64,000 bases of DNA from Psammoneis japonica (taxonomy: Eukaryota), in NCBI GenBank assembly GCA_008632985.1, contig QPGO01000174.1, positions 62,001 to 126,000 of the forward strand, in the 5' to 3' direction. Positions 5,033 through 44,639 of this stretch are shown piece by piece. Position 1 is the first letter of the stretch, and each line of letters begins with the position of its first letter. The notes below the pieces were generated by a model. That model saw nothing but the letters and a program-made list of their open reading frames with translations, was not told where the DNA came from and made no database searches. The translations under genes and the position numbers were made by a program.

Positions 5033-5980
5033 TCAGCAGTAAAGCCGCACCAAAGTCAGTTCTGAACAATGAGGGCATGCTTGATTATCATCACGTTTCG
5101 CCACAACATAGCCGAGATCGAACAAACTCTTGGCAGTGTCGACAAAATCAACTTCGAACTTGAAGTCCTCAATGTCAGAAGGATGTAATTCTTCGAACTG
5201 AGTCTGGTAGTGGACTTCTACGAGAATCTGCATTGGCAAAGCGTGGCTGCGAGTTTCATGAAAGGAGTCAAAAACCCCAAATTCAAACCCTTCAATGTCC
5301 ATTTTTAGCAAATCAATTTGGGTATGATTGTTTCTCTGTGTGAGTTCATCAAGGGTAAAGAAGAGAGGACTCGGCTTGGTTCCGTTTCCACCATGTAGGC
5401 ACTCATAGTGAAACGTAAGCCGGCTATTCTCGGGTACGCTGAATCGCGACTCTGGCCCAGTACAGTCAAATGTGTGGATCTGGCATTTCGTCTTTTGAAG
5501 GAGATCTAATTCAAATTCCCACTGGTTGTTACCGCCAATCGAGTAGATGACACAGTCCTCACTCTGCAAGTTGGCAATTCCACAAGCAATTTTACTCGTG
5601 TCGGCGCGACACGGTCCTCCTATGCACGCAAGTTCGGTGCAATTCGCTAGCTCCTTGAATATTCGAAAGCGCTCGTGATCGTGTTGGCTTCCGGGAGCTT
5701 CTATAGCTTTCCGACGAGCATCGGAAAATCCTTCTTTGTATGATTGGATTTCACTTTCCTTGAATTGGAGAAAAGGAAGCGTCGGATTTAACTTACACAT
5801 TGATCTGCCATCAGATTTTCCTTTCGAAGTAAGGGGCCTAGGACGACCGTCTTGGTGCGGATGAGCGACAAGAAGATACCACAACTCATAGACCGCCACT
5901 ATAATAAAGATGTTCCGAACACTACAAACGTGGTTCAACGGTTGGTTTGCTCTCGTTGGGCGTGGGCTGACGTTCACCAT
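5033..5980 (-). CDS. Methyltransferase-domain protein (Methyltransf_22/METTL24-like) with N-terminal membrane anchor, 315 aa
   Basis: Intact ATG-to-stop ORF with normal TpA and Tyr content. Motifs CVIYSIGGNNQWEFE, CQIHTFDCT, IDLLKMDIEGFEF, QILVEVH, CPHCSELT. Hydrophobic segment IFIIVAVYELWYLLV. Confidence 0.85.
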   Translation of the reverse strand: MVNVSPRPTRANQPLNHVCSVRNIFIIVAVYELWYLLVAHPHQDGRPRPLTSKGKSDGRSMCKLNPTLPFLQFKESEIQSYKEGFSDARRKAIEAPGSQHDHERFRIFKELANCTELACIGGPCRADTSKIACGIANLQSEDCVIYSIGGNNQWEFELDLLQKTKCQIHTFDCTGPESRFSVPENSRLTFHYECLHGGNGTKPSPLFFTLDELTQRNNHTQIDLLKMDIEGFEFGVFDSFHETRSHALPMQILVEVHYQTQFEELHPSDIEDFKFEVDFVDTAKSLFDLGYVVAKRDDNQACPHCSELTLVRLYC

Positions 5981-6387
5981 GGTAGAAAAAGGTGTGTGTT
6001 GAAGGTTTCGCTGACGCCGTGCACAGCAGGACAGGACGACTGTGCACCGGTCATTTCGCCTGGGGCTCCATTGCGTTTTCCGGTCATTAACCCCACAACG
6101 TGTCCCATTCCTGAACGCTGGTGTTTTCAGCCAATCACATCATGTCATGAGTGAATTATTGTGACTCAGCAATCCCCCCATTATGACGCATCAACACTTA
6201 CACACAACGAAAATTTCAGCTTTCTGATCATTCCACCTCAGCCCACTCCCGGCTTGGGAGGTCTGCAGTTGACCTCAGCCACTCAAAATCTCCGTGTTGT
6301 GGGATCTTGGTGTTCGCGGCTCGCTCTTGCTTTCTCTCGTGTGCGCACACACGCGTGTTGCTCCAGCTCGCTCATGCTGTTCATGCC

Positions 6388-12461: not shown

Positions 12462-12935
12462 TGGCTCGTGTTTTGCATCATTTTTCCTGAATTTCACCGT
12501 GCTTCACCGTGGGCGCGTTCCAGCCCTGGGTGGGACTCCGTGTGACACAAAGGTCTAACACACTCACATGTGTTTGGGGGTGCTCAGAGGCATCGCAAAA
12601 TAACACGGGCGAAGTGCGGGGAAATTCGAAAATCACGAGCTATTTAAAAAAATAGTGCAAAACAACGATCCAGCCAATTTTTGTATTCAAAAAAAAAACA
12701 ATAAACATCCTTCTTCAAACGCCACAGTAATTTTAGGACACGCGGGGATGACCCCCTAAAAAAGGCAAAAACAAGGTGGTTTCCACGCTTGAACAACACC
12801 GTACTACAGTACAGAATCATAACACGCGAACGAGTCAGTAGAGGATTTTGCACAATATCGATTCCCAAGTCGCCGCCAGCAACCACAACCGCTTCACGTG
12901 TCAGGGCAACAAGCGGACCATCGACGAGTCTACCA

Positions 12936-14250
12936 CTAGGGCCAAAAATGAGCGGCAATGCCTCTTTCACGCATGCCCCGAAAAAGCAGCATGCTGTCCT
13001 TAATGGTACCTTCCATGAAACCGGTCCAGGGCCTCGCCAATTCAAGGAGATGAACGTGATGTTCAAAGTAGAAATGATCAATCTTTTCATTGAGTTCTCT
13101 ACATACAACAAGGCAAAATGACAAGAAAGGAATCAAGGCAAATGAGTCAGTGTGAGGATGAAGTCAGCATAAACACCCATCCATCTCTATAGTGTGGACG
13201 GACTCACGTGTTGTTTAAGACTTGGTAGGCGAGTGGCACTTCTATCGACGCATTATCGATATCCAGCTTGACAACAATGAAATCGTCCTTGTCAAACATG
13301 GACAAAATGTTATACAAGGGATTGTCCGGAGAATTTGGGTCTGCATTGACTCCAATGTTCATCCAATGATACGACGCCCTCAGATTGGGTGGAACTTTGT
13401 TAAAGACTTCCGTCGGTACCTTTGGTTTAATCTCAAAGGCATAGATGTGGTCAAAGTGGAACCCAAACTTGGTGTACACTTTGTTTATGTACATTGCTGG
13501 GCTTTCCATGCTGTGAAAGTCAAGCGCGGCTCCCATGTCAACAAAGACAGTGCGGGCATGAGTTTTTAATTTCCGGCACATGTGAGAAAAGTCGTGAATC
13601 CTAAAAGAGGAAAAAACAATTTTTAAGAGAGAAAGCACAATAGCGACACAGGGCACATCGGTTCTTAAAAAAAGAGCACAATCTTACATATAATTCATGT
13701 TGAAAGCATTTCCGTTTCTTTTGCCTTGTAAGCAGATAGCGTGATGGCGCATCGGAGGCGTTAATGGCTCCACCCATCCTGCCCGGGTATGCGATATTTG
13801 CCTTGACGGAAACAGGCCCATCATACCGTCCTTATGAAATTCGAGACTATTGCAAATCTTTTCCTTTTGCTTTGGATTTTCCTTGAACATGGCGCGCAAG
13901 TCTTTCGGAACACCGGGGTGTTCTTTCAAAATTCTACTGTAGTTTGCTAATTCGGCAGCATATGCGTGCAAGTCGTCGTAGTGAGGCGTCTCCTCGTGCG
14001 ATTTCCAAATTGTACATCCAGACGGGTTGTCCAGGCTGTCAAAGCCGAGAGCGTCCAGGTTATCGATCAGATAATTCTCAACCTTGGCACCAACATAGCC
14101 GTCATACGAAGGAATTTCGACCTTGCCTTCAATTTCAGAATTGTCCAAAAACGAAGTCGAGTATATTTTCCACAGAATCAAGATCCCGTTGATTTGAAGT
14201 AGCCCCAGGAGGAACGCCATCGCGACAATGGCATTTTTCAAAGTCGCCAT
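12936..14250 (-). CDS. 3-exon gene, FkbM/methyltransferase-like protein with N-terminal anchor, 372 aa (exons 14250-13688, 13600-13208, 13098-12936)
   Basis: GT-AG introns 13687-13601 (GTAAGA...TTTTAG) and 13207-13099 (GTGAGT...ATGTAG) join three ORFs in phase (1119 nt). Motifs VFVDMGA, HIYAFE, DFIVVKLDID, FYFEHH. The structure is well supported; the function is inferred. Confidence 0.85.
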
Positions 14251-14512
14251 GGTGTGTGGGTCTTCTCAACTTCAACTACTCTCTAGAGAGCTAGCTGCTG
14301 TGATTCTGTACGGTAGGGCCCTAATGCTCTCTACTAGGGCCCTACTAGCTCTAGCTAGCTCTCTATACTACAGCAGTAGAGAGCACTGCATCATAGAGAG
14401 GGCCCTACTTACTCAGGAGGGCCCTGTGCCCCATCTAACATCCATGCTTGGTTGCATCTTATCCAATTTTTCGAACACTTGTGAGAAATGACCAAAATGA
14501 CCGCTGCATTGT

Positions 14513-14689
14513 TGAATGAGATAGGCACGTGTACTTTATGACCGAGTGTGCCCTCTCTGACATGTGCACATTAAAACTAACGCATTAGACATGCCGCGAA
14601 CCGTTGGGTTTGTCCCACATCAGCGATGATGGGGTCTCTCCTCGGTTTTCGCACAATTTTTATCAAGTCATCTCAAGCTAGATCTTGCA
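14513..14689 (+). repeat. 5' LTR of Gypsy A
   Basis: 177-bp direct repeat of 19633-19807, running tgaatgag...gatcttgca. Confidence 0.95.
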
Positions 14690-17600
14690 CTGTAATTGCA
14701 GTTGTTGTCACAGCTTGTCCACTGCATTGTCAACTTTGTGACAATGCAAAGAGTGTTGTCGAGAAGAGAGAAAATTTGTTTGCGAGCTCATGCAGAAAGT
14801 TTCACTCGAAGTCGATCAGAATCGCAGTGTAATTACACTCGTGAAATTGGCGATTCGGAGCAGTGTTTGTTTGAACTCGAAGCTTGTGTTGCCACCATTG
14901 AGTTCGTCATTGTTTGGTCATTGATTGTTCTCGTTGTGTGGATCAGCTGGGAACGCCTCATTTCGTTTGTCTTGTGGATTGTCGATTGTTTGATCGCTGA
15001 AATTGTTCATCGCCATGCATCAAGAAGCCTTGGAGAAAGAGAGCATGGAATTGAATCATTGTTGCACGTGGAGGACAGGTTCCGGAAGGTGGCAAGACAG
15101 CCAGATTATGATGCAGGAACAGAGTTGTTTGATGCTTGCGAGGATTGTCTCCAAGGTGCTGCGGAGGCGAAATGGCAGAATGTTGCCGCAGATGTCCAAC
15201 AGAATCAACGGACAGTGGCTTGATTTGATCAGGCTGTCTCGGCCCATCATCCATGCTGCGTGAAACCGACAGCTCGCGACACGATGAAGATGCATTTGCC
15301 TGCTTGCAAAAAGCCTTGCTCAGCGGAATCTGAAACTCACATTGATCGCATGGAAATGTTGTTCCGTCATGCTAACCGTTTGCCTGGAACCGTTCCTGAA
15401 CTTACAGAGCAGGAGCAGAAAAATGTCATCTTTCATGCCTTCCCTTTGACCTGGCAACAGCCCTGCATTCGTGCGGGCAAGAACCTTGTTGCAGGTTCCA
15501 TGGTGGACATCCAAGCCTGCATGAGTGACGAGAAGGTGTTCGCCGATGGTCAAGATGACAAGAAACGCAAGTCCAACAATGGCAATGGAGGGAACTCCAG
15601 CAACAAAAAGGGCAACCGTGACAAGAAGGACAACAAGGGCCAACCGAAAGCAAATGATCCATGTCCGGTCCTGTGGCACCATGGAAGGCACACATGGGGC
15701 CAGTGTTGTGATGATCCAAACAACCCTGACTGTCCTGGGCCTCAGAACCATGGTGGTCGAGGAGGAGGCCGCAGCAGTGGAGGTCAAGGCAGAGGTCATT
15801 TCCAAGGAGGCCGTGGAGGCGGTGGATGCTTTGGTGGTCGTGGCAACCAGAACCAAGGAGGTCGTGGCACCCACTGTAACAACAACAATGGACATCAGAG
15901 CAACAATGGCAACCAAGGTGGTGGTCAACATTGTCACAATGAAAACAACAACCGTGGAGGCCGAGGACAGGCCGACAGATGTGCTGCTCAAGCAGACAAT
16001 GTGAACAATGACAACCAGGCTCAAGAAGCTCCTCGTGGTGATGTGCACCATTTCGACATGATCTGACAAGGCCCTCCACGATGCAGAGGTGTGGTGAGGT
16101 TTCAGCCAGATGGGCAGTTTCCTCGGCAGTTCTGAGAAGAAGGAGCTGAATGCTCTGGAGCTGAATGCTCCCAACTGCCTTTGAGAGAAGCATTTGTTGA
16201 TGAAAATGATTGTGTTTTACCTGAATGAAATCATGAAGGTTTTGCTTTTGATTGTTTTGAAAATCCTGACAAATTGTTGCCTGTTGAATTTGAAAATGCT
16301 GCAGAAAATTACATGAATGGAGAGGGGGATGCATTTGATCAAGACGCACTTGAATGTGACACTCCTCTCCCCAAAATGAACTCGCAAGTCTCGCGCACCG
16401 CGTTGGTCCCATCTGCACCACTTGTTGCAAAATCGATCCAATGGCATGAGTTGAATCGAGTGATGCGTGTTTTGTTCGATTCGGGTGGTTCTCACACTGT
16501 GATTTTGTCTCAAGTTTTGCCTCAAGGAGCCGCGCCATCTGTTGACGAACATGGAGTCCGAGCTTTTCAAACCACTGCAGGTCCTTTCCAATCGGGTCGT
16601 TGGGCAGCCTTGAGCAATGTCGTGTCACCAGAATTCGACAAGACTGGGAGGATTGACAGCTGTGTGGCTCACGTGTTCGATGCTCCGTGTGCACATGACA
16701 TCATTTTGGGTTGAGATTTCTTGGACAAGATTGGTCTCAACCTGAACTGTGACACAAGGACGCTGTGATGGCCAGACCATGTGATCCCAATGAAGGAACC
16801 TCGTCATTTGTCCAAGTCCTGCAATTGGCACATGGCTTTAGACCGAATGGATGAATTTGATGAAGATTGTGAAGACGAGTTGGACTGCGGATGCGATGAT
16901 GGACATGACACCCACATGCTCAATGCCAAGTGTGAAGCGACGAGTCTGGCGGAAGTGGTTCGGAACTTAGACCATCTCACGGAAGAACAAAAGAAGAAGC
17001 CATCAGCAGTGTTGGAAAAACATTCAACTTTGTTTGATGGAACGTTGGGGCACTGTCCTCATGAAAAGGTGAACCTTGAAGTGGACGAAAATGCTGTTCC
17101 ATGTCACTCAAAACCGTTTCCTGTCGCTCGAGTCAATGAAGAAGCATTCAAAAAGGAATTGAAGCATTCAGTGAATCTCGCTGCACTTCGACCATGTGGA
17201 CCTACGGAATGGGTAGCCGGCACCTTCATTGCTCTGAAGAAGGATGGCCGAGTGCGATGAGCATCCAATTTTTGGGAGCTCAACAAGGTCCTCAAGCGGA
17301 AAGTGTGTCCTTTGCCAGTCATTCAAGATGTGCTGCAATGGAGAGCGGGTTACAAATTCTTCACAAAACTGGATCTCACTGTGTTCTGCTGCAATTTGGA
17401 ATTGGACGATGAAAGCAAGGAGCTTGCTGCGATCACAACTCTGTGCGGGAAATTCCAGTGCTGTCGTGTGGCCATGGGATTAAAGCCAGCTCCAGACATT
17501 GCTCAGTCCATTGTTAAAAAGATTCTGCATGGTTTGGATGTTGAAACTTACATTGATGACATTGGCGCGTTTGATGCTGACTTTGATTGCCATCTCTCTC

Positions 17601-19632
17601 GTCTTGACAAGGTGCTGCATCGTCTTGAGGAGAATGGTTTGAAAGTCAATCCGTTAAAATGCGAGAGGTGTGTTCAAGAAACCAATTTTCCAGGGCATTG
17701 GCTTGCTCCAACTGGCATTAAACCGTGGAAAAAGAAGGTCGAGGCGATCCTACAAATGCAGCCTCCACAGAGTGCTGCACAGCTCTGATCGTTTCTCGGT
17801 GCAGTGACCTGCTGTCGCAATGTGTGGCCTCGCCGTTCTCACCCACTTGCACACCACTGACTGAATTGACAGGCAAGAGTCAGTTCCAATGGACAGAATC
17901 ATGTCAGAAAGCATTCAAGGAGATGAAAGCAGCAATCGCGGCGGAAGCGTTGATGGCCTGCCCTGACCACAACCTGCCTTTCCATGTCCACACCGATGCA
18001 CCAGACTGCCAGATGGGCGCCGCTGTCATTCAAGATGGCATTCCTTGAAGATTTTGCGCCTGCATTTGCCAATTGTTTTTCTCGTCTGCCACGCATGGAT
18101 CCGCCTTCGGAGGGGAAGAGCCTTGGGCCAAGTGGCAAACGCAAAGGAAAAATTGTTCATTTTGAAAAGTTGGATTCCAGGGAACTGAGCAGAGCCGAGG
18201 AAGAGGAAGATTTGGAGTTGGGCGCTTGCAGGTTCAAGTGTTGCCGTGCTCCTGTTGATCCTTCTGATGAGTCTCACACCGCCTTTTCCTCTCTGCTTGA
18301 CAAGCCCAAATTGTTTGAATGCTTTTTGAATTGCCCAATGCTGGACAAAATGCCGAATCCCACTGAGATGCTGAGGATGCAACAGTTCCAGTTCAAAGAC
18401 CTCCAACTGAACCAGCAAAGACAACAAAATCCGCAGCAGTTCGTGGTCAAGATTGTGAACCATCGTCCCCTGATTTGTTGTCGTTTGCATCTGAATGATC
18501 CACCTGGAGCCTGGAAAATTTGCGTTCCTGCTGCGTTGTTGTCGGATGTCATTGCATGGCATCATTGCGCATTGGGCCATTGTGGAGTCGTGCAATTGCA
18601 TGAAAGTGTTTGGACTCACATGTGTCATCCTGCATTGCGTCAACGTTGCAATGAATTTGTTTGTGACATGTGTCAACGATATAAACAACTGGGTCCTGGA
18701 CATGGAGAGTTGCCTCAACGTCAAGCGCCTTTAGCTCCGTGGACGGAAGCAGTGGTTGATCTCATTGGACCATAGAAAATGCCGATTCAAGACCAAGAGA
18801 TTGAATTCAGTGCTCTCACTTGTGTTGACACTGTCGCTGGATTGACTGAACTTGTGCGCACTGACAACAAAACTTCTCAGCATGTGACCAACAAGTTTCG
18901 CAATCTTTGGTTGGCTCGTTGTCCCAGACCGAATCGATGTGTCCATGACAATGGTGGAGAATTCATTGGTTGGGAATTTCAAATGCTGCTAAATCAAGCA
19001 GGTGTTGCTGATGCGCTGACAATGTCTCGAAATCCTGCAGCCAACTCCATTTGTGAACGAATGCACCAGACGGCAGCTAACATCTTGTGCACTGTGGTTG
19101 TCGCTGACCCACCTTTGAATGTTCAACAGGCCAAGCAGATTGTGGATGATGCCCTTGCTGCAGCCTCTTGTGCTTTGCGATGCTCCCACTCAAGGTCCAT
19201 GGGTGTTTCAAGTGGAGCTCCAGTGTTTCAACGTGATGTGATTTTGGACCCACCCATTGTCTCCCACCTTGCTGTGATGCAAGCCAACTGACAAGTGTTG
19301 ATCGACAAGAACCTGCGACAACAGAATGCAAAGCGCCATTCCTGCGATTGTCTGGTTGGTCAAGATGTGTCAATCAAGTTGGTGGATCCTTCAAAGTTGG
19401 AAGAACGAGCCTGTGGTCCATTTCGAATTGTGCAAGTCCACACCAACGGGACTGTTTCGGCACTGCAAGCACCGCACATCATTGAGCGAATTGACATTCG
19501 CCGCGTGGTGCCACATCAGAGTTGAGGGTTTCTTCCCAACGTCTGGGTTCCCTTCTCCGTGTGCATTGGGTTTGAATTTTAGTCAAGTGGTTCCAATGGT
19601 GTGCATGTTCCTTGCACCATGGAGGGGAAGAG

Positions 19633-19807
19633 TGAATGAGACAGGTGCGTGCACTTCATGACCGAGTGTGCCCTCTCTGATGCATGTGTGTTAACTGGCA
19701 CATTGGACATGCCGCGAACCGTCAGGTTTGTCCCGCATCAGCGATGATGGGGTCTCTCCTTGGTTTTTGCACAATTTTTGTCAAGTCATCTCAAGCTAGA
19801 TCTTGCA
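19633..19807 (+). repeat. 3' LTR of Gypsy A
   Basis: Follows the PPT and is followed by TSD ATTGT. Confidence 0.95.
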
Positions 19808-19880
19808 ATTGTGAACTCATGACTGAGTGAGACAGGCACATGTGCTCTGTGACCAAGTGTGCCCTCTCTCTCTGATGTGT

Positions 19881-20291
19881 TGCAGCATGCATGCAGACAA
19901 AAGGTTGTTTTTGTCATGACCTTTGTGACTTTTAAACTGCAACACATCACCGTGATGCATTGGCTCTTACAAGCAGCTGGATGTTGCACTCCTCCCCATG
20001 TGTCACGTGACCTTGCAGCTCTTGCCAACGCGACACGAGACACTGAACATGTTTGGCAGAACAGTGTGGGTGCGTTCGACAGTGATGAACGTTGCTGCAG
20101 ACAACTCCCACTCAGGGTTTCAAACCCCTGGCCTTCTGGTGCCCAATGGTTGTGTGATGAGCCACTCCACTGCAAATTCATGGTGCAGCATGCATGCAGA
20201 CAAAATGTCATTTTTGTCACAACCTTTGTGACTTTTAAACTGTGACACATCGCCGTGATGCATTGGCTCTTGTGAGTGGCTGGACATTGCA
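19881..20291 (-). mobile_element. TRIM-like non-autonomous mini LTR element inside the 5' LTR of Gypsy B
   Basis: 108-bp TG...CA direct repeats at 19881-19988 and 20184-20291, 4-bp TSD GTGT. PPT-like ggggaggag on the minus strand abuts the left repeat. Absent from the sister LTR at 30484-30667. Confidence 0.8.
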
Positions 20292-23200
20292 GTGTGCACA
20301 TCAACTGATGCATTGGATGTTCAAGGGACCATTGGAAGTCCACTCTGATTAGTGATTGCACTGATGGATCCCTTCTCGGGTTCCCTCACAACCTTCCTCA
20401 TCAAGTCATCTCAAAAGCTGGATCTTGCACTGCAATTGCAGTCATTGTCACAGCTTGTTCGTTGTGCTGTCAGTTTCATGACAATGTGTGGAGCACTGCC
20501 AAAAAAAGAGAAAGCCTGTTTGCATGCTCGTGCAGAAAATTTCATTAAAAATCAGTCAGAATCTCAGCGCAATCATGCTCGTAAAATTGGCAATTCAGAG
20601 CATTGTTTGTTTGAACTCAAAGCTCGTGTTGCTGCACTTGAATTTGTTGTTGTTTGGCCATTGATTGTTCTCGTTGTGTGGGTCAATTGGGGTTGCATTG
20701 TTTCCTCAGTTTTGTGGATTGTTGGCTCTTTGATTGCTGAAATTGTTCATCGTCATGCATCAAGAAGCCTTGGAGAAAGTGTGCATTGAGAATTTGTGGA
20801 CTCTGAATTGCAAGAAGTGAAGCTCACTCAAACTTTTGATGATGGAGCCAAACTTTCAAAAATGTGCCCTGTTTTCACAGGAGAGCATGGAATTGAATCA
20901 CTGTCACATGTGGAGGACCAACTTTGCAAGGTGGCAAGACAGTTGGATTGTGACACCGGAACAGAACTCTTTGATGCTTTTGAGGATTGCCCACAAGGTG
21001 CTGCAGAGGCGAAATGACAGAACATCATGGTGGGTGTTCCTCAAAATCAAAGGACGTCAGCTCATTTCAATCAAGCTGTCATGACCCACTGTTTGCGCTG
21101 CATGAAGCCGACAGCTCGTGACACAATGAAGATGCACTTGCCTGCTCAGCAGGAGTGCAGAAGAATGTTGTTTTCCACACTTTTCCTCTGACATGGCAAC
21201 AGTCCTGCATTTGTGCAGGCAAGAACCTTGTTGCGGACTTGATGGTGAACATTCAAACCCACATGAGCAATGAGAAAGTGTTTGCCGATGGTCAAGACAG
21301 CAGGAGGTGCAAGTCCAACAATGGCAATGGAGGGAACTCCAGCATCAAGAAGGGCAACCAACCATGACAAGAAGGAAAACAAGGGTCAACCAAAGGCAGG
21401 TGATCTGTGTCCGGTCCCGTGGCATCATGGAAGACATGCATGGGGCCAGTGTTGTGACAATCCAAACATTCCCAACTGTCATGGACATCAAAGCCACAGC
21501 GGTTGAGGTGGAGGTCGTGGCAGCAGAGGTCAAGGCAGAGGTCATCACCAAGGAGACTGTGGTCCTGGTCGTGGTGGCGGTGGATGCTTCGGTGGTCGTG
21601 GCAACCAAAGCCAAGGAGGTCGTGGCACCTGTTGTGACAATTGCAACAACAACCACAGTGGAAATCAAAATGACAATGGCAACAAGGGCGGTGGCCAGCA
21701 TTGCTGCAATGACAACAACAATCATGGTGGCCAAGGTCAGGCCGATGGTCACGCTGCTCAAGCAGACAACATGAACAACAACCAGGGGCAAGAAGCTCCT
21801 CGTGGTGATGTGCGCCATTTCAATGTGATCAGACGAGGCCCTCCACATCATGGAGGAGTGGTGAGGTTCAGCCAGATGGGCAGTTTCCTTGGCAGTTCTG
21901 AGAAGAAGGAGCTGAATGCTCTGGAGCTGAGTGCTCCCAGTTGCCCACATGTGAAATGTTTGTTGATGAAAATGATTGTGTTGCACCTGAAAATGTGCCT
22001 GAAAATTTTGCCTTTGATTGATTTGAAAATCCCAATGAATTGTCACCTGTTGAGTTTGAAGATGCCACAGAAAATTGCGCGAATGAAGAGGGGGGCATGT
22101 TCAATCAAGATGCATTTGAACAACACACTCCTCTCCCCAAATGGGTTTGCAAGTTTTGCACACTGCACTGGTTCCATCTGCTCTGCTTGTTGCCAAATTG
22201 ATCCAATGTCATGAATCAAATCGTGTGATGCGTGTTTTGTTTGACTCTGGTGGCTCTCACACTGTGGCTTTGTCTCAAGTTTTACCTCGTGGAGCCATGC
22301 CATCCATTGATGAACACAGGGTTCAAGCTTTTCAAACCACGGCAGGTCCTTTCCAGTCGGGTCATTGGGTGGCTCTGAGTGACATTGTGCTGCCAGAATT
22401 TGACAAGACGAGGAGGATTGACAGTTGTGTTGCTCATGTGTTTGATGCTCTGTGTGTGCATGATGTCATTTTGGGTCAAGATTTCTTGGACAAGATTGCA
22501 CTCCATTTGAGCTGCGATGCCAGAACTCTGCATTGGATGGACCATGCAATCCCAATGAAAGAACCTCATCATTGGCCCAAATCCTGCAATTGGCACATTG
22601 CTCTGGATTGAATGGACAAGTTTGATGAAGACTGCAAGAACAAATCGAGTCATGGCTGTGATGATGGATGTGACAGCCATGTGCTGGATGCCAAGCATGA
22701 AGCAGTGGATCCTTTGGAAGCAGCTCAAAACCTGGATCATCTGACAGAAGAACAAAAGACAAAGCTGCCAGTGGTGTTGAAAAATGCTCATTGTTGTTTG
22801 ACCGAACTTTGGGCCACTGTCCTCATGAAAAGGCACACTTGGAAGTGGATGAAAATGCTGCACCCTGTCACTCAAAACTTTTTCCTGTTCCTCGAGTCAA
22901 TGAAGAAGCATTCAAAAAGGAACTGAAACATGCATTTGGTGGACCCAGGAGTTTTACGACCATGTGGACCCACGGAATGGGCAGCCAGTGCTTTCATCAC
23001 TCTGAAAAAGGATGCCGAGTGATTTTCGTGAACCAAACAAGGTGCTCAAATGGAAGGTCTGTCCTTCACCAGTTATCCAAGATGCACTGCAATGGAGAGC
23101 AGGCTGCAAATTCTTCACGAAGCTTGACCTCACTGTGTTCTGCTGCAACTTAGAATTGGACAATGAAAGCAAGGAGCTGGCAACAATTGCAACTCCCTGC

Positions 23201-24226
23201 AGGATGTTTCAAAGCTGCCACATGGCTGTGGGATTGAAGCCAGCTCCAGATGTTGCTCAGTGTGTCATTGAAAAGATTTTGCATGGTTTGGACATTGAAA
23301 ATTGTGTTGATGACATTGGTGCCTTTGACACTGACTTTGATTGTCATCTCTCTCATCTTGATGAGGTGTTGCATTGTCTCAAAGAGGATGGATTGAAAGT
23401 CAACTCATTGAAGTGCGAATGGTGTGTCCAAGAAACAGACTTCCTGGGACATTGGCTCAGTTCGACTGGTGTCAAACCATGGAAGAAAAGGTCGAAGCTG
23501 TTCCTCCACAGAATGCTGTGCAACTTCATTCGTTTCTGGGTGCTGCAACCCACTGTCATGTCATGTGGCCTCATTGTTCTCACCTGCTTGCACCTTTGAC
23601 GGAGTTGACAGGCAAAAGCCAGGTTCCATTGGTTGGGTGCATGTCAGAAAGCATTCAAGGAGATGAAAGCAGTGATTGTGGCAGACGCTTTGATGGCCCA
23701 TCCCAACCATGACCTTCCGTTCCATGTTTGCACCAATGCATCTGACTGCCAGATGGGTGCAGTCATTGTCCAAGATGGCAAACCGGTGGCTCACTGGTCC
23801 AAGAAGCTTTTGGCAGCACAACACAACCACTCAACAATGGAGAAAGAACTCCTGGCCATCATGATGTGCTTCAAAGAATTTTGCACCATGTTTCTTGGTG
23901 CCAACATTGCTGTTCATGCTGATCACAAAAATCTCACCTTTCACACTTTGAGTGCACAGTGCATCCTTTGCTGGCATCTGTTCCTCGAAGATTTTGCACC
24001 CAACTTTAAACATGCAGAAGGCAAGGACAACATGCTTGCCACTTGTTTTTCTCATCTTCCACACATGGATCTGCCTTCGGAGGGGAAGAACCTTGGGCCA
24101 AGTGGCAAGCGCAAGGGAAAAATTGTTCATTTTGAAAAGTTGGACAGCAGCAAATTGAGCAAGGCCAAGGAAGAGGAAGACTTGGAATTGGGCGCTTGCA
24201 GGTTCAAGTGTTACCATGCTCCTGTT

Positions 24227-27200
24227 TGACAGGATTTGAGCAGGATTTAGGTGCGCGCGAAATGTCGCGCGCCATTTAGTTTGCCGCACACAGTTTTGTG
24301 TGCTCTTCAGTTCCGCGCGCACGCACGCGATGTGGTTTGCTTTCGAGCCACACGGCTCACAAGAACAATGACAGCAGCCCGATTGTGCCGACTTGCACGT
24401 CTTTCGGCTCCTGTGACGGTCTCTGAGTGGAGACTCATCTGCCATTTAGACAGCAGTGAGGAGTTGTTGTTTGAACTCTTGCCATTTGCCTTCAATTTCT
24501 GTCAGATTGACAGTCTTGCTCATTGTCAACCCATTGAGCAACCGCCATCATCGTCGTTGATTTACTGACGACGCCATTTCAATTCTGCGCGGACCTCCGT
24601 GTGTGTTCTACGTGCACATCGGCAAGTCTGAGCGCATTCAATGCCAGGCATCGACAGGAATTTAACGTCACCGTCAAGTCTCCTTGCCGCTGGAAATCTG
24701 GGTTGATTGTGCTGCCTTTTGTCGCTGAAGACATGCATTCAACGGTTGTCAACAGGAATCATTCGTCTCTCAGAGTCATTGCGTAGAAGTTGTGTAGAAG
24801 AGCACCAGAAATGTTTGTTGTCAGTCTGTCCACCTGTCCACATTCGAATGTCAACTCCTTGGGAAATCAATTGAAATGTCATCTGATCAAGGGCATTGCT
24901 CTTCACCATCTAAATCAAAACACCCTTGGTCAGACAACATTTCAATTGAGTTCCCGAAAAGTTGGCAGCCCTGATCACCCTCTCGTGTGACATTGTGCAC
25001 ATTTCCACACGATTTGGTGTTTTTCCTCATGTGAAATGCCAGTTGTGACTCTTGCGACATTTTTGAATGATTCCTGTTGTCCAAGTCCATCCTTGATCCT
25101 CATCCCTTGACACACCCATTCAACGGTTGATGGTCAAGAACCCCACACATTCAAAGATCTTCGTTGCTGAAGACACATGTGCACATCTTCACGGCCAAGA
25201 AGTTGATCCCACTCTTTGGGCTGCGGCTTTGCCACCACTCCACAAGCACACCGAGTCTGTTGCACCTGATCTGCCCTGGACTGCTGGTGCTCTGCAGTTC
25301 CGCTGGGTCCATGAGGATGACTGTGAGAGCAAGCAGCCGTGATTGCAGCCTGCGTTGGGGCGAGGGTGTTTTCCCGCATTTGTTCGTTCGTCCACAGCAC
25401 CTGGCACCTGCGTCAACTGGCCAGCCTGATCGGGAAATCCAACAGACATAAAATGAGAACGGTTTGGGGGTCTTGTCCACCTCTGGTCAGCTTGCCTGCA
25501 GGGGTTTGCAACCCGCTACTCTGCTTGCAAGCAACCCAAAGCGCCGCTGGCTGCGGGCTCGGATGTGCCGGCACAACTCTACGGACTGGACAGGAAGTTT
25601 AGCACTTGACAACAAACGGGATGGCACAGCCCGGTGACTTCTGATTTTAAGATAGTTCAAGATTTCAAGTCAAGTCCATTTCAAGTCAAGTCCATTCCCA
25701 CTCAAGTTTCAAGTCCACCTCCGCGTCCTGACAAGAATCGCTTGCCCTGACACCGCTTTTGTCCACCATGGTTCTTGCTCGTCAGCAACAAACCGATGGT
25801 TTCGAGCATGTTGTTGGAACCGTGCTTGCCCAAGGTGCTGGAAGCCCTCTTTGTTTGGCTTTGACCCATGACAGCACGGACTCGCACCAAGAACTGTTCA
25901 CGTTCACATGCCTTCCCAAATCAACTCGCTTGAGTGCGACAACGGCACTGATGTGATCCCATTGCCCCAAGGTTATAAGAACATGTTGGCAGCTCCAGTC
26001 AGTCTGCGCATTGTCAAAGCACACAAAGACCTTGATGTTGCCAATGACTCCTTGTTGTTTGCGCATGATGAGTTCCTTGCCTGCCGCCTCAGTCCCGACT
26101 GCATGTCTTCTGTGTCCGTTGGCAGCTCACCTCTTGCACCTCCGCACGTCACCATCCCGACCAAGGCACGCGACCCAGTGCGAGACTTCAAGTGAGGCAT
26201 CAAGCGTGACCCCACTGCTTTCACGGCTCTCAAATCCGACAAGCATCAGTGGCACACTTGGCACACCTCACTTGTGGCACAAGCCCGTGCCCAAGACGTC
26301 GAGTGCATTCTAGACTCGTCGTGCAAACCGACCAGCCCCAAAGACAAACTGCTCTTTGCTGAACAGCAAAAGTGCATGTTCGCCATCTTCGAATGCATCC
26401 TTCTCACCGACAAGGGCAAAGCTCTCATTCGCGAAAATGTGGGGTCTTCTGACGCCCAGACCATCTGCCGCGCCTTGTCCGAGCATGTGCTTGCCTCCAC
26501 CAGTGCATCCATCGAGTCCTCCACCTTGCTCATGCACCTCACCACCGCACGCCTTGGTGATGGCACTTGGAAAGGTCCGACCCACGGGTTCATCCTTCAT
26601 TGGCAGGATCAGTTGTGCAAGTGTGCGGCACTCATCCCGGCCAGCGACCACTTCTCTGAAGGACAGAAGCGCGTCATGCTCGAGGATGCCGCACATCCTG
26701 TCGAGGAACTCCGCGCCATCAAGAACCAAGCTGATCAACATCACACGCAGAGTGGCAAGAGCCTCACATGTGATCAATGTTGTGGCTTGCTCCTCTCCGC
26801 GGCGGCTCAATGCGACAGCACGTTTCAACCCAAGACAACACCTCGAGCTCCCCGCCATGCCATGTGCGCACACAACGTCTGCTCCGAGGAACCATCCGAT
26901 GATGTGTTCCATGACATTGACAGCGACATTGACGCCCTTCAGGCTGACACTGCCCACACCCGCGGTCCCAGCCTCGCCGGCGACCAATGGAAACGTCTCC
27001 CTCCCGACCACCAACGGATTTGGGATTCGTTGCCCAATTCCTCCAAAGCAACCATCCTTGAGCATTCTCGTCCGCCTCCTCACAACCCACGAGCCGGCAA
27101 CCGCCATGAGTCCGTTGCAGTCAACCTTCACTGCCAACAACTTGGGAGCGATGGTGATGTCAACTTGTCCACCACGACTCTTGCTGACTCTGGTGATCCT

Positions 27201-29111
27201 GCTCCAAATGTGGGCGCCACTTCAGCCCATCCCATTCTGGCGCATCTCACCAAGCGCAAGCCACTGCCACCCGGTGATCTGCAACGCCTGTTGTCTCCCA
27301 ACCAAGCCCCCAAAGCCAGTCGACCGGGCCCATCCGCCGCTCCCTCTACCTCGCCTGCTCCTCCAGATGACATGGAACTCAACGGCCGCACTTGCCGCCC
27401 CGTTGACAACCACAATGTCATTTGCTCTGCCTCCGCTCATCGCTCCACACGCACTGGTGCTCTAGTTGATCGTGGAGCCAATGGCGGCATTGCTGGCGAT
27501 GACGTTCGCGTCATTGTGCGCACCTCTCGCCAAGTTGACGTTCAGGGCATTGACGACCATCAATTGGTGGACATCAGTGTGCGACCCGCTGCCACCGATC
27601 CTTCCGTTCGAAACCCATGTCTTGATCCTCCTGATGGGGAGCCACCTGAACCCATCATCAAATCTTGCCATGACGACAACCCCATCGATTCACCTGATGG
27701 GGAGATCAGGACACCCAAGATGCCAGTTTTTGATCCACAAGACATCATCGGACGCACCTTCCTCATGCAGCCACAAGAGGATGGACAATGCCACAGAGCT
27801 CGCATCGTCAAGGCCGTTGAAGATCACAACTGGAAAGTGAACGGCAACCCCAAGCTCACTGAGTTAGTCTGCTCTGTCAACAACGATGAATGCGAGGAAG
27901 TCCTGGCCTGCAACGACATCATGAATCACATTGAGCAAGAAGATGAAGACACTGCTGTTTGAAAATTTCGACGCATTGTGTCACATGAAGGACCTCTGAA
28001 GCCTCATGACCCAACCTGGAAAGGCTCAAGCTGCAACATCATGCTTGAATGGGAAAGTGGGGAGATCACGTCCGAGCCTCTTGCCATCATCGCCAAGGAC
28101 GACCCTGTCACCTGCGCCATCCATGCACGAGAGAATGGACTTCTTGACACTGATGGCTGGAAGCAGTTCCGCACCATCGCGAGGCGCCAGAAGAAGCTGT
28201 TCCACATGGCCAACCAAGCCAAGCTTCGCTCCTTCCACACTGCACCTCGCCACAAGTGTGGATGCGGAGTTCCCCGGAACTGCAAACACGCCATGTTCCT
28301 AGACGAATGCAATGGCAACCGCAAATGGGGAGACACAACCAATCTCGAGATGGACCAACTCGATGAACACGAAGTCTTTCATGACTGCGGGCCCTCTGAG
28401 TCTTCCACTCCTCCTGCAGGACACAAGAAGATCCGAGTGCACCCAGTGCACGACGTGAAACACGATGGCCGCCACAAGGCACGACTCGAGCAGATTGTCG
28501 ACCTGCGCATTACCCTGCGTTGCCTCAGCATCCCGATCCGTGACATCAGTTGCCTGTTCGGTGACAACAAGTCGGTTGTGGACAGTGCCACCATCCCGCA
28601 CTCCAAGTTACACAAGCAACACACCGCTCTCTCATTCCATTGTGTGCATGAGGCGATTGCCTCTGGTCACCTTGAGCTCCACTTCATCGAAGGCCCCCGC
28701 AACCCTGCTGACATTCTTGGCAAGCATTGGGGTTGCTCCCAAATCTGGGACCTTCTCTGTCCCCTCATGTTTTGGAACTTCATTCCATTCGAAGTCGAAT
28801 CTGTTTCTGTGACTCCTCAAGCAAACTGGGGAGTGACAGGATTTGAACAGGATTCAGGTGCGAGCGAAATGTCGCGCGCCATTTAGTTTGCCGCGCACAG
28901 TTTTGTGTGCTCTTTAGTTCCGCGCGTGCGTGCGCGATGCAGTTTGCTTTCGAGCCACACGGCTCACAAGAACAACAACAGTGGCCCGATTGTGCTGACT
29001 TGCACGTCTTTCGGCTCCTGCAACGGTCTCTGAGCGGAGACTCATCTGCCATTTAGACAGCAGCAAGGAGTCATTGTTTGAATTCTTGCCATTTGCCTTC
29101 AATTTCTGTCA
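24227..29111 (+). mobile_element. Copia (CoDi-like) element A, internally deleted, nested in Gypsy B pol
   Basis: 278-bp LTRs at 24227-24504 and 28834-29111, perfect TSD CTGTT, PPT ctggggag. Gag and protease (LVDRGANGG) present; integrase core and most of RT deleted relative to 56342-63226; RNase H tail FGDNKSVV...NPADIL. The Gypsy sequence resumes exactly after the TSD. Confidence 0.97.
24757..25085. repeat. Third copy of the hairpin-bearing repeat, in the Copia A 5' untranslated region
   Basis: Collinear with 11316-11900; hairpin at 24871-24945. Confidence 0.8.
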
Positions 29112-44420: not shown

Positions 44421-44639
44421 AGCGCTGTGGTTCAAGCTCCCTTGGTCCGATGATCGATGATGGCTGCCGCGGTCCCGCTGGGCCGCTCATGCTTATCATT
44501 TACATATATACTTCTGCGTTACTTCTACATTAAAAATACTGTACAGTAGCGGTTACCGGGCCTGCATCATGATGTTGATCCTACAAAAATGTATGCAGCA
44601 TTAAAATTCCAAAAAATTCACAGCATACGGACTTGAGGA

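Follow-up and report, generated by a model that had tools for sequence, protein, structure and literature searches.

Position-dependent loss of TpA after integration, recorded in the sister LTRs of a Ty3/Gypsy element in a diatom-like genome

Introduction

Differences between the two LTRs of a retrotransposon can record what happened to it after insertion. In the window analysed here, a 64,000-bp stretch of a contig from Psammoneis japonica, the LTRs of one element, which we call Gypsy A, differ markedly in their content of TA dinucleotides, and the LTR richer in TA is the one that lies next to a host gene. The question raised by this locus is which mutational process made the two copies diverge, in which direction and when it acted, and whether its strength depends on chromosomal position, as had been claimed in a preliminary description of this DNA.

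Results

Gypsy A and the other elements of the window

The element at 14513-19807, Gypsy A, belongs to the Ty3/Gypsy group and is intact. Its LTRs have the termini TGAATG...CTTGCA and form direct repeats with ATTGT on either side, as in LTR elements, and a reverse transcriptase (RT) domain (RVT_1, Pfam E = 9.7e-14) lies upstream of Integrase_H2C2 and rve matches, both below the Pfam cut-off, which is the RT-then-integrase order of Ty3/Gypsy elements. Its homologues have RVT_1, RNase H, H2C2, and rve domains, and the best solved-structure match of its RT is Ty3 RT 4ol8 (E = 8.5e-17). The element and the adjoining host gene are organized as follows:

12710..14250, minus strand: host gene of no Pfam family, exons 14248-13687, 13599-13208, and 13098-12710; TA 4.1 per 100 bp
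14251..14512, unstranded: spacer rich in TA and CTAG that separates Gypsy A from the host start codon, with two AGCTAGCT copies
14508..14512 (left) and 19808-19812 (right), unstranded: perfect 5-bp target-site duplication ATTGT of Gypsy A
14513..14691, plus strand: 5′ LTR of Gypsy A, with TG..CA ends, 262 bp from the host start codon; 8 TA, 9 CG
14692..19632, plus strand: interior of Gypsy A, with RVT_1 at about 17321-17701, integrase H2C2 at about 18524-18685, and rve at about 18785-19033
19633..19807, plus strand: 3′ LTR of Gypsy A; 2 TA, 7 CG; a purine-rich tract (ggaggggaagag) lies immediately upstream

The three exons of the host gene are joined in a contig of run X2, from which two GT..AG introns have been removed. 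The position of its start codon, 14250 (minus strand), agrees with the distance of about 260 bp from the 5′ LTR given in the preliminary description.

Four further LTR elements were mapped:

19824..30670, plus strand: Gypsy A′, older and of the same family as Gypsy A, interrupted by Copia C; 5′ LTR at 19824-19879 and 20292-20432, divided by a 410-bp insert, 3′ LTR at 30484-30670; TA observed/expected (o/e) 0.04, CG o/e 0.29
24227..29111, plus strand: Copia C, nested in Gypsy A′; LTRs 24227-24504 and 28834-29111; target duplication CTGTT
36561..41671, plus strand: Gypsy D, the youngest element; LTRs about 36561-36870 and about 41362-41671 (outer edges uncertain), 94.5% identical
56342..63226, minus strand: Copia E, with RVT_2 in the ORF 57252-58814; LTRs 56342-56586 and 62982-63226; target duplication AGGCT

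Thus 5-bp target duplications are present for Gypsy A, Copia C, and Copia E.

Substitution spectrum of the LTR pairs

All the example differences quoted in the preliminary description are present in the alignment of the two Gypsy A LTRs, and its counts of 8 and 2 TA were reproduced. It had placed nearly all differences at TA, CA, TG, and CG sites, which is true of most of them but overstated: 12 of the 16 substitution events are TA/CA, TA/TG, CG/CA, CG/TG, or CA/TG, and the remaining four are three transversions and one other transition. At the single differences between TA and CA or TG, it is always the 5′ LTR that keeps TA (6/6, two-sided binomial p = 0.031), an asymmetry that concerns one locus and six sites. 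In a four-LTR alignment including Gypsy A′, one site reads TA in the 5′ LTR of Gypsy A, CA in its 3′ LTR, and TG in Gypsy A′.

The non-random contexts were also found when all five LTR pairs of the window were aligned and classified. The pooled mismatched bases comprise 107 transitions and 11 transversions, and 67 of the 93 substitution events fall at TA/CG/CA/TG (Y-R) steps, namely 25 CA/TG doublets (CA in one LTR and TG in its sister), 12 TA/CA, 7 TA/TG, 12 CG/TG, and 11 CG/CA; the rest are 15 other transitions and 11 transversions, besides 18 indel columns. For comparison, events were placed at random 2000 times, with the numbers of transitions and transversions held as observed. Doublets then averaged 2.1 (largest 7, none of the 2000 placements reaching 25) and Y-R events 51.3 (largest 66), whereas other transitions averaged 52, against the 15 observed. 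The four single-change classes alone showed no excess over chance in these placements, because CA/TG is so abundant.

Copia C has 8 doublets between its LTRs, and the Gypsy D pair has 7 single TA/YR differences, 2 doublets, and only 2 substitutions outside the Y-R class; TA stands at about 1.8 per 100 bp in the Gypsy D LTRs versus about 0.6 in its interior, a contrast that the process proposed below does not account for. Sister LTRs of elements with intact target duplications differ from each other, often as CA against TG, so that mutation took place after integration, as had been proposed. It acted on both strands, again in line with the preliminary description, since TA>CA and TA>TG are found together inside single LTRs.

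Direction of the change

The direction of change is set by the conserved tyrosine codons of the elements, many of which now read TGY or CAY: TA is lost, opposite to what happens in fungal RIP. In the RT of Copia E, the 13 columns with Tyr in at least 60% of 34 homologues are occupied by 7 Cys (TGY), 3 His (CAY), 2 Phe, and 1 Tyr, whereas other conserved residues are retained (Leu 21/22, Gly 22/23, Ala 13/13, Pro 12/12). The 10 Tyr columns of the Gypsy A RT (89 homologues) hold 6 Cys (TGY), 2 Phe, and 2 Tyr. Tyrosine accounts for 0.4% of the Copia E RT stretch, compared with 4.0-6.4% in 33 of the 34 Copia homologues, and for 0.6% of that of Gypsy A, compared with a median of 4.1% in the 89 homologues. 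Counted per kb and strand, TAA has fallen from 9.9 to 2.0 and TAG from 9.3 to 1.1 (about five- to eight-fold depletion), while TGA shows no decrease.

The loss is specific to TA and close to saturation. Across the 55,556 bp outside gene islands TA o/e is 0.061, against 0.55 in the 8,400 bp of islands; outside islands CA reaches 1.70, TG 1.73, and AT 0.90, CG is at 0.42 (0.89 inside), and the other dinucleotides are near 1. GC content is 0.49 outside islands and 0.46 in genes, and RIP-type indices outside islands are 0.067 for TpA/ApT and 1.87 for (CpA+TpG)/(ApC+GpT). In the interior of Gypsy A, TA o/e is 0.084 and CG o/e about 0.63-0.64, and some of this interior TA loss could have been inherited from source copies already mutated.

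The TA that survives is found mainly in TtaA, CtaA, and CtaG, with AtaT, GtaC, and AtaC nearly absent. This ranking of contexts is identical under two normalizations and also predicts the 13 Cys to 3 His seen at the Tyr codons of Copia E and Gypsy A together, although residual TA may have been newly made from CA/TG rather than having survived, which weakens the inference from context.

Gene islands and their margins

Besides the host gene next to Gypsy A, the window has three gene islands with normal TA:

4501..6200, minus strand: FkbM-type methyltransferase ORF 5036-6139
43001..45000, minus strand: ORF 43407-44486, no Pfam family
48501..50460, plus strand: UDP-glucuronate 4-epimerase-like ORF 48672-50006

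Among the best 120 hits of the epimerase-like ORF all named organisms are diatoms, with 64-70% identity in 119 of the 120. The depleted DNA includes the five LTR retrotransposons and, depleted to the same degree, DNA without a recognizable retroelement domain; tests of 43 long ORFs (140 aa or more) from depleted DNA outside the five mapped elements gave no match above a Pfam cut-off, so that the target may be repeats or simply all DNA outside genes.

The Gypsy A pair alone is asymmetric in TA (8 vs 2; the other four pairs have 1/2, 3/3, 5/6, and 1/0), and it alone, among the five, has an LTR less than 450 bp from a gene. When candidate ancestral-TA sites, which include CA/TG doublets, some perhaps of CpG origin, are sorted by distance to the host CDS, TA is retained at 7 of 9 sites at 1-300 bp, 12 of 20 at 301-450 bp, 2 of 16 at 451-600 bp, 1 of 22 at 601-1000 bp, 8 of 83 at 1-2 kb, and 49 of 434 beyond. 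Retention thus drops from about 60-78% inside 450 bp to about 5-12% outside (pooled, 19/29 vs 60/555); for sites up to 600 bp versus farther away the odds ratio is 7.3 (p = 1.3e-8), in a pooled test that covers four gene flanks of one window and sites that are not independent. At each of the eight CDS ends, TA counted per 100 bp dwindles to almost none over a distance of 100-600 bp, and three further repeat edges adjoining genes likewise keep TA. The dependence of strength on position, which the preliminary description had read from Gypsy A, is thus upheld within this one window.

Decay of CpG

Differences between CG and TG or CA make up 23 of the 93 events, the pattern expected from decay of methylated CpG, read here from the sequence; methylation of CpG in diatom transposons is known. 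CG o/e in the elements is 0.29-0.76 overall, compared with 0.89 in islands, and falls with element age (0.73 in Gypsy D, about 0.63-0.64 in Gypsy A, 0.29 in Gypsy A′). Of the 39 sites with the best support, 14 carry CG in the majority of family copies but TG or CA in the copy in the window, and Arg-to-Cys and Arg-to-His changes are seen in Copia E. In the Gypsy D pair, survival is 0.88 for CpG and 0.36 for TA, and per site the TA process is roughly ten times as fast as CpG decay. This slower decay had not been separated out in the preliminary description, which named no mechanism.

Discussion

Proposed mechanism

In our view these observations are probably best explained by TpA-specific A:T-to-G:C transitions, acting after integration on Gypsy A and on nearly all non-genic DNA in the window, with genes and about 450 bp around them spared. 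The LTRs of Gypsy A would have been identical at integration, and the host would have applied the process afterwards. A hit on the top-strand A would turn TA into TG and one on the bottom-strand A would turn it into CA, with each LTR resolving each ancestral TA independently, which would give rise to TA/CA and TA/TG differences and, after both had been hit, to CA/TG doublets. The slower CpG-to-TpG/CpA decay, as expected from cytosine methylation, would supply the CG/TG and CG/CA differences and, as both processes end in CA/TG, these dinucleotides would accumulate to 1.7 times expectation. If host genes and roughly 450 bp on each side are spared, the 5′ LTR of Gypsy A, at 262-441 bp from the start codon, would lie within the margin and so keep most of its TA, and the 3′ LTR, 5.4 kb away, would lie outside and lose it. 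For the chemistry we favour an enzyme that would deaminate adenine in DNA to inosine at 5′-T-A-3′, with a preference for a pyrimidine after the A, bearing in mind that TA is its own reverse complement and that A>G and T>C are indistinguishable in these counts. The targeting would track a silent chromatin state that ends short of active genes.

Alternative explanations

Fungal-type RIP, or another C-to-T process, would make CA/TG ancestral and TA the product, and the gene-proximal 5′ LTR the more mutated one. The TA/CA and TA/TG differences are by themselves directionless, and at gaTAgg the three other family LTRs all have CA. However, the repeats are nearly without TA instead of being enriched in it, their RIP indices are inverted, Tyr codons have become Cys or His, TAA/TAG stops have been lost and not gained, AT enrichment is absent, and C-to-T at CpA cannot yield CA/TG doublets, so that we give this reading almost no credence. 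Methylated-CpG decay alone, in which each doublet would derive from an ancestral CG turned into TG in one LTR and CA in the other, is very unlikely, even though the CG/TG and CG/CA differences, the low CG outside islands, the family comparison, and the Arg changes of Copia E all speak for such decay. Most CpG have survived in both sister LTRs (pair C shares 18 and pair D 14), and a homogeneous model of such decay accordingly predicts few doublets, 0.06-1.45 per pair and about 2 in the four pairs fitted (pair B, with 6 doublets, could not be fitted), against 19 observed. Moreover, two doublet sites of the A/A′ LTR family show TA, not CG, in the outgroup copy, and neither TA at 0.06 of expectation nor the loss of Tyr codons would be accounted for. 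Animal retroelements are well-known targets of deaminase editing, and changes made before integration, by ADAR-like A-to-I editing of RNA, APOBEC-like editing of cDNA, or RT errors, would be inherited by the new copy, as part of the interior TA loss may have been. Yet both LTRs derive from one template and would share earlier changes, and the sister LTRs differ at TA sites; in addition, both strands are hit equally, DNA without any recognizable retroelement domain is equally depleted, and chromosomal position matters, in place of the shared, strand-specific, and site-independent edits expected of such deaminases. We regard this origin as extremely improbable. It is also highly unlikely that CA and TG are sequencing artefacts, called consistently in place of a modified TA in silent DNA. 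Some long-read assemblies do contain context-specific errors caused by base modifications, but CA in one LTR and TG in its sister, in the same local context, is unlike a systematic miscall. In run X1, which may be the source data and hence not independent, 61% of the 31-letter words sampled from 12500-20000 are present, and 572 of 3008 pieces match the window at 99% or more; its differences from the window show no excess toward TA (3 of the 39 best-supported places), the changes overall being A>G 90, G>A 83, T>C 81, and C>T 72.

Purifying selection could have kept TA in the 5′ LTR as part of the promoter of the neighbouring gene, with mutation not excluded from there, and the LTR does lie just upstream of a gene present as a spliced contig in run X2, promoters often requiring TA-containing motifs. 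Against this, TA is retained on the 5′ and 3′ sides of four genes over similar widths, unrelated repeat fragments are covered too, and selection would have to act on most TA over several hundred bases of a recent insertion; furthermore, Gypsy A′ occupied the same position before Gypsy A inserted, and its 5′ LTR now has 1 TA. We therefore consider selection quite unlikely. Also unlikely, though less so, is thymine chemistry, i.e., the same post-integration TA process without an adenine deaminase, in which oxidation or hypermodification of T at TpA leads to T-to-C through mis-repair or mispairing. Given the palindromic TA, every count fits T>C equally well and the context rule also reads purine-T-A, and in dinoflagellates thymine hypermodification is concentrated at TpA. 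On the other hand, we know of no pathway that efficiently and specifically converts modified T to C, and the T-A-pyrimidine context is similar to U33-A34-C35, on which TadA/ADAT enzymes act. Adenine deamination, the chemistry that we prefer, is also favoured by the authors of the Bigelowiella natans preprint discussed below.

Comparison with known systems

Like ascomycete RIP, the process described here produces post-integration transitions in mobile DNA, in a dinucleotide context and on both strands, within sharply bounded compartments in which elements are inactivated. However, RIP makes TpA from CpA, whereas TpA is destroyed here, stops are removed and not created, and the excess of TpA, AT enrichment, and new stops that mark RIP are replaced by their opposites or absent. 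The premeiotic, duplication-sensing machinery of RIP is, to our knowledge, not known outside fungi. The decay of methylated CpG in silenced vertebrate and plant transposons is matched by the CG>TG and CG>CA changes that separate sister LTRs and that set the window copy apart from its family, but it accounts for just 23 of the 93 events and does not explain any of the TA loss. With the APOBEC3 and ADAR systems of animals there is a likeness in the hypermutation of retroelements by nucleic-acid deaminases with a preferred neighbour context; those enzymes act on cDNA or RNA before integration, on one strand, and both LTRs inherit the change, in contrast to the differing sister LTRs, two-stranded action, and positional effect seen here. 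ADAR is, as far as we know, found in animals only. There is an enzymatic parallel in context with TadA, ADAT2-ADAT3, and the TadA-derived adenine base editors, which convert A to I with U/T before the A and a pyrimidine after it, matching the preference for TA followed by C or T suggested here. The natural enzymes act on tRNA, and an activity on chromosomal DNA is purely our inference.

In the mutation-accumulation lines of B. natans reported by Mettrop et al. (bioRxiv 2026, 10.64898/2026.01.13.699255), 230 of 231 mutations in two viral inserts are A>G or T>C, all of these at TpA, the mutation rate rises roughly 1000-fold in some lines and not in others, and an ADAT2-like candidate is proposed. 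Both systems share A>G/T>C changes at TpA, yielding TpG or CpA on either strand, local action that spares ordinary genes and affects, among other DNA here, mobile elements, and TpA depletion with CpA+TpG enrichment. The thresholds given there (rho of at most 0.43 for TpA and at least 1.52 for CpA+TpG; 10.64898/2026.01.13.699255) are passed by most of the window outside gene islands. For Gypsy D a rough rate of about 300 times background per site, calculated with no more than 2 background substitutions, is comparable in order of magnitude to the increase in B. natans. The systems differ in that the host here is diatom-like (a stramenopile, by protein similarity) and there a chlorarachniophyte; in that LTR retrotransposons and almost all intergenic DNA are targeted here, and two viral inserts there; in the much deeper depletion here (TA o/e 0.06 vs 0.45 for the giant-virus region there), with CpG decay running alongside; and in that the changes confined to TpA are fixed differences here and de novo mutations there. 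The words "LTR", "trinucleotide", "flanking", and "diatom" do not occur in the available text of the preprint, and relative to that text the margin spared around genes, the preference for particular bases 3′ of TA, and the record in LTR pairs appear to be new. The window thus presents the TpA-to-CpA/TpG signature in a diatom-like genome, near saturation, in retrotransposons and nearly all intergenic DNA.

A TA-poor window with host-gene islands

TA steps reach 0.13 of expectation over the whole window, and in 500-bp bins the division is sharp: five islands hold 11-31 TA per bin, and the bins outside them 0-9, mostly 0-5, against 21-42 expected.

TA-rich islands
4501-6200
12462-14700
43001-45000
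48501-50460
from 63500

Outside the islands (55,556 bp) the observed/expected (o/e) ratios are 0.061 for TA, 0.42 for CG, 1.70 for CA and 1.73 for TG; inside them (8,400 bp) they are 0.55 for TA and 0.89 for CG. The islands are host genes, encoding an FkbM-type methyltransferase, a UDP-glucuronate 4-epimerase-like protein and two ORFs of no known family. The epimerase-like protein has no public match above 70% identity, its best 120 matches lying at 64-70% (one at 54%), and all named organisms among them are diatoms. For the gene at 12710-14250 (minus strand), which is the neighbour of the retrotransposon Gypsy A, a contig of sequencing run X2 joins three exons with two GT..AG introns removed, as a spliced transcript would give; the in-frame stop of this gene lies inside an intron. 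At the left edge of the same island there are 44 N (12418-12461), adjoining sequence that one frame translates as poly-proline, and just inside the island lies a 118-bp dispersed repeat (12558-12675, copy at 53350-53467) where many contigs of run X1 end.

The stop codons TAA and TAG occur 9.9 and 9.3 times per kb per strand in the islands and 2.0 and 1.1 times elsewhere, with no fall in TGA, and their loss leaves many long ORFs on both strands. Relative to the retrotransposon genes, frames of up to 424 aa lie on the opposite strand or in a different phase, for example at 15426-16700 (minus), 15320-16216 (minus) and 59249-60487 (plus). A Pfam scan covered 45 ORFs, two of which (the host-gene ORF without a family and the epimerase) are not from depleted DNA; none of the other 43, all of at least 140 aa and outside mapped elements, reached a curated cut-off, the sole listing being MAR_sialic_bdg (E = 0.0048), below it. 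Two tandem arrays are also fully TA-depleted, a degenerate one with units of about 300-360 bp (6388-7191) and duplicated fragments related to the leader of the retrotransposon Copia C (11254-11897; leader at 24747-25079).

LTR retrotransposons and their sister LTRs

Self-comparison of the window recovers the direct repeats 14513-14691 and 19633-19807, which are 86.6% identical by BLAST and 89.6% over ungapped columns. They start with TG and end with CA. A perfect target duplication of 5 bp (ATTGT) bounds the element on both sides, and directly before the 3' copy lies a tract rich in purines. The interior encodes a reverse transcriptase (RVT_1) and, downstream, an integrase zinc-binding domain and integrase core; the former can be aligned to the solved structure of the Ty3 enzyme (4ol8, E = 8.5e-17), and the public relatives are full Gypsy polyproteins, the two named ones coming from the diatoms Chaetoceros tenuissimus and Epithemia. 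From the TG..CA repeats, the duplication and the coding content it follows that this element, Gypsy A, is a single intact insertion and that its LTRs are true sisters. The four further LTR pairs of the preliminary description belong to real elements, with coordinates that needed small corrections.

LTR retrotransposons of the window
14513-19807, Gypsy A, Ty3/Gypsy element
19824-30670, A', older element of the Gypsy A family, LTRs at 19824-19879 plus 20292-20432 and at 30484-30670
24227-29111, Copia C, nested in A', target duplication CTGTT
about 36561-41671, Gypsy D
56342-63226, minus strand, Copia E, with RVT_2, target duplication AGGCT

The insertion site of Gypsy A is just 11 bp ahead of the 5' LTR of the older A' (19808-20432 region), an LTR that is itself split by a 410-bp insert carrying a 111-bp tandem duplication (19878-19988 and 20181-20291, 85.6% identical). 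Over 12500-20000, the summed contig depth of run X1 is 54 on the host gene versus 1,650-4,140 on the Gypsy A interior, and its contig pieces (n = 3008) differ mostly by transitions (326 places versus 36 transversion places). This depth and divergence indicate that the family is present as many diverged copies in the organism. Run X2 has no cover over 14257-19527, which we do not take as a sign of element silence.

Every LTR difference quoted for Gypsy A in the preliminary description is present in the alignment, as are the 8 TA of the 5' LTR and the 2 of the 3' LTR. The five pairs together show 107 mismatches that are transitions and 11 that are transversions. By event, these comprise 25 doublets (CA in one LTR, TG in its sister), 12 TA/CA, 7 TA/TG, 12 CG/TG and 11 CG/CA events, with 15 other transitions and 11 transversions remaining. 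The same numbers of transitions and transversions were then placed at random 2000 times. Doublets averaged 2.1 in these placements and never exceeded 7, and other transitions averaged 52; all events among TA, CG, CA and TG steps (the Y-R classes) averaged 51.3 with a maximum of 66, against 67 observed. The single-change classes taken alone show no excess over chance in these placements, because CA and TG are so common in the window, and the signal consists of the doublets and of a shortage of transitions elsewhere.

If every ancestral TA is hit in the end, with each LTR resolving it independently, half of such sites would become CA/TG differences. CpG decay alone cannot account for the doublets. 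Most CpG steps persist in both sisters (pairs C and D share 18 and 14), and a homogeneous decay model gives 0.06-1.45 doublets per pair, about 2 in total in the four pairs to which it could be fitted, versus 19 observed; the remaining 6 are in pair B, for which no fit was possible. CpG decay in the window is nevertheless real: the window has TG or CA where the X1 family majority has CG at 14 of the 39 best-supported differing places, and CG o/e falls with apparent age (Gypsy D 0.73, Gypsy A 0.64, A' 0.29).

The youngest pair, D, fits a simple TA model: the 310 bp would have started with about 15 TA, as dense as in the islands, and survival is 0.36 per copy. This model expects 3.1 doublets, versus 2 observed, and only 2 substitutions of the pair lie outside the Y-R classes. 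The per-site rates relative to background are very roughly 300-fold for TA loss and 40-fold for CpG loss (survival 0.88), ratios that rest on two background events and are uncertain by an order of magnitude; per site, the TA process outpaces CpG decay about tenfold. With 5 and 6 TA in 310 bp, the Gypsy D LTRs have about three times the density of the interior (about 0.6 per 100 bp), so that either LTRs are hit less than interiors, or the interior depletion was partly inherited from a mutated source copy. The balance of CA and TG on the sense strand is inconsistent between families, TG exceeding CA in Gypsy A and the reverse holding in Copia C and Gypsy D, and we treat it as uninformative.

TA is the state being lost

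That TA is the state being lost, as had been proposed, is borne out by protein comparison, by the loss of stop codons and by a comparison of four LTRs. In the RT-RNase H stretch of Copia E, Tyr makes up 0.4% of residues versus 4.0-6.4% in 33 of 34 long homologues, His 6.5% versus about 2-4%, and Cys 5.9% versus 0.2-2.8%. At the 13 columns with Tyr in at least 60% of the homologues (one Tyr-poor homologue omitted from the counts), Copia E has Cys (TGY) at 7, His (CAY) at 3, Phe at 2 and Tyr at 1, while it retains Leu at 21/22, Gly at 22/23, Ala at 13/13 and Pro at 12/12 conserved columns. Gypsy A has 0.6% Tyr versus a median of 4.1% in 89 homologues, and at ten Tyr columns it has Cys (TGY) six times, Phe twice and Tyr twice, the tyrosine of YIDD being among those retained. 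Comparison of all four A/A' LTRs shows two sites with TA in the 5' LTR of A, CA in the 3' LTR of A and TG in A', for which an ancestral TA is the sole single-step explanation. Taken together, the tyrosine codons, the stop codons and the four LTRs show that TA turns into CA or TG, an A:T to G:C change.

The same Tyr-poor, His/Cys-rich composition (Tyr < 1.5%, His+Cys > 8%) is found in 7 of 150 Copia RT homologues among public cluster representatives (P0148, P0161, P0191, P0233, P0242, P0265 and P0266), versus none of the 89 Gypsy A homologues. A metagenome scan with the Copia E RT gave one locus, L001, a 1257-bp contig carrying an environmental Copia relative with 63% protein identity. The locus is short and its TA loss mild, and we base no conclusion on it; with CG o/e at 0.19, CA/TG at about 1.6 and TA o/e at 0.59, it has strong CpG decay without extreme TA loss.

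A spared margin beside genes

The intensity of TA loss was also claimed to depend on position, and within the window this holds both for the asymmetry of pair A and for retention by distance from genes. Pair A stands alone both in having an LTR at most 450 bp from a gene and in being asymmetric, its TA/YR singles splitting 6:0 (p = 0.031); the TA counts per LTR in the other four pairs are 1/2, 3/3, 5/6 and 1/0. TA density per 100 bp is 8-10 in the spacer at the start codon and 4.5 in the 5' LTR of Gypsy A, drops to about 1 in the 400 bp that follow and is about 0.3 after that. Three unrelated repeat fragments abutting genes hold more TA than their distant copies: 4 versus 1 (4624-4740), 3 versus 0 (12558-12675) and 3 versus 0 (44770-44970). 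In the repeat 3824-4740, the gene-proximal 117 bp behave differently from the remainder (Fisher p = 0.004).

All paralogue-informative sites pooled: fraction still TA at each distance from the closest host CDS
1-300 bp: 7/9
301-450 bp: 12/20
451-600 bp: 2/16
601-1000 bp: 1/22
1001-2000 bp: 8/83
beyond 2000 bp: 49/434

Retention up to 600 bp exceeds that beyond it with an odds ratio of 7.3 (p = 1.3e-8, over four flanks with non-independent sites), and the margin occurs on the 5' as well as the 3' sides of genes. Since Gypsy A inserted just upstream of it, A' was once in the position closest to the gene; today the distance is 5.6 kb, with 1 TA in the 5' LTR of A', a history that fits protection going with position and not with sequence.

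The palindrome AGCTAGCT has four copies, at 4845, 14289, 14353 and 50379, against an expectation of 0.11, and none of 100 shuffles attains that number. Each copy sits in the TA-rich flank of a host gene, close to where the spared zone ends and within low-complexity sequence rich in CTAG. The palindrome may act as a promoter, a terminator or a boundary element, or these flanks may simply be the sole regions in which a word containing TA can persist. Aligning the gene-island edges for a common motif gave the AGCTAGCT core alone and no longer conserved element.

Sequence context of the target

The TA steps present in depleted DNA are mostly TtaA, CtaA and CtaG, with AtaT, GtaC and AtaC nearly absent. 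In a model that fits the ten contexts to within about two- to three-fold, survival per strand depends on the base that follows the A, at about 0.52 when this is A, 0.37 when it is G, 0.11 when it is C and 0.08 when it is T, and the ranking is the same after normalising to CA/TG sites able to yield new TA. The preferred target thus looks like T-A-pyrimidine, with the caveat that the remaining TA may have arisen anew instead of having survived. Such a preference predicts that Tyr codons (TAY) turn to Cys more than to His, and the pooled outcome in Copia E and Gypsy A is 13 Cys versus 3 His.

Proposed mechanism and alternative explanations

The preliminary description read these differences as mutation after integration, on both strands and dependent on position, and our analysis supports this reading: within the window, the changes postdate integration, affect both strands alike, run in one direction, are specific to TA, approach saturation and vary with position. 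In the mechanism that we consider most likely, an element, like other non-genic DNA, would enter a silent state after integration, in which the A of T-A(-pyrimidine) would be converted on either strand and read as G at the next replication. Methylated CpG would decay more slowly, both processes draining into CA and TG, and active genes with a margin of a few hundred bases would be excluded. We infer adenine chemistry, an enzyme and chromatin as the targeting cue. In its full form, the proposal is that a DNA adenine deaminase, directed by chromatin, turns T-A-pyrimidine into T-G-pyrimidine in all DNA outside active genes, whichever strand carries it, an 'inverse RIP' held back about 450 bp outside each gene and either ancient in the SAR supergroup or repeatedly evolved from tRNA deaminases; we offer it tentatively, as a possibility that is somewhat more likely to fail than to hold as a whole.

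The same process may act through thymine instead of adenine chemistry, which would give the same A:T to G:C direction. RIP of the fungal type, a C-to-T process, is contradicted by the direction of change, with TA lost, not gained, and the RIP indices inverted (TpA/ApT 0.067). Editing before integration is very unlikely, since both LTRs would share its changes and the sister LTRs differ from each other at TA sites. Selection on a promoter is a less probable reason for the TA kept in the 5' LTR of Gypsy A; the spared margin is also found at gene-abutting repeat fragments and on the 3' sides of genes. Miscalling of modified bases is very unlikely too, as sister LTRs read CA in one and TG in the other at sites of identical local context, which a systematic miscall would not give.

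Consequences for mobile DNA and its annotation

If this reading is true, mobile DNA loses its tyrosine codons, its signals of the TATA and AATAAA types and the stop codons TAA and TAG with GC content unchanged, and an enzyme, if responsible, would be a candidate natural, TA-specific DNA adenine base editor. The process has a testable anatomy, acting after integration and on both strands, preferring a pyrimidine after A and stopping about 450 bp from genes. LTR divergence falls from 5.5% to 0.6% (Gypsy D), 8.6% to 1.1% (Copia C) and 10.4% to 2.3% (Gypsy A) when only differences outside the Y-R classes are counted, so dating by raw LTR divergence is badly inflated and unreliable in this genome. 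The long false ORFs on both strands mislead gene finders and make ORF-based calls unreliable, and homology searches for transposon proteins lose sensitivity.

Comparison with known systems

Compared with fungal RIP, the direction here is the reverse, TA being erased. In the literature, we found no report of TA-erasing hypermutation in diatoms or in general except a 2026 preprint on one rhizarian alga, the chlorarachniophyte Bigelowiella natans (10.64898/2026.01.13.699255). According to its main text, 231 of 302 nuclear mutations in mutation-accumulation lines fell in an integrated giant virus and virophage, at about 1000 times the background rate; 230 of the 231 were A>G or T>C, all 230 at TpA, and the authors propose an ADAT2-like DNA adenine deaminase. 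The mutational signature described there is the same as in our window, which differs in that its host proteins and Gypsy relatives point to diatoms, and in depth: the most depleted viral region reported in that text has a rho of 0.45, with only the lowest 5% of windows at or below 0.43, whereas most of the 64 kb here is at about 0.06. The words 'LTR', 'trinucleotide', 'flanking' and 'diatom' are absent from the main text of the preprint.

The signature thus has a precedent and is not categorically new. If our reading is true, its presence in a chlorarachniophyte as well implies a system that is ancient within SAR or that evolved repeatedly from tRNA deaminases, and near-saturated action on retrotransposons speaks for genome defence or silencing of a general kind and not for something peculiar to two viral inserts. 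What the window adds to the precedent is a second major eukaryotic lineage, retrotransposons as targets and a far greater depth, together with an internal clock in the sister LTRs, a spared margin beside genes and a flanking-base preference.
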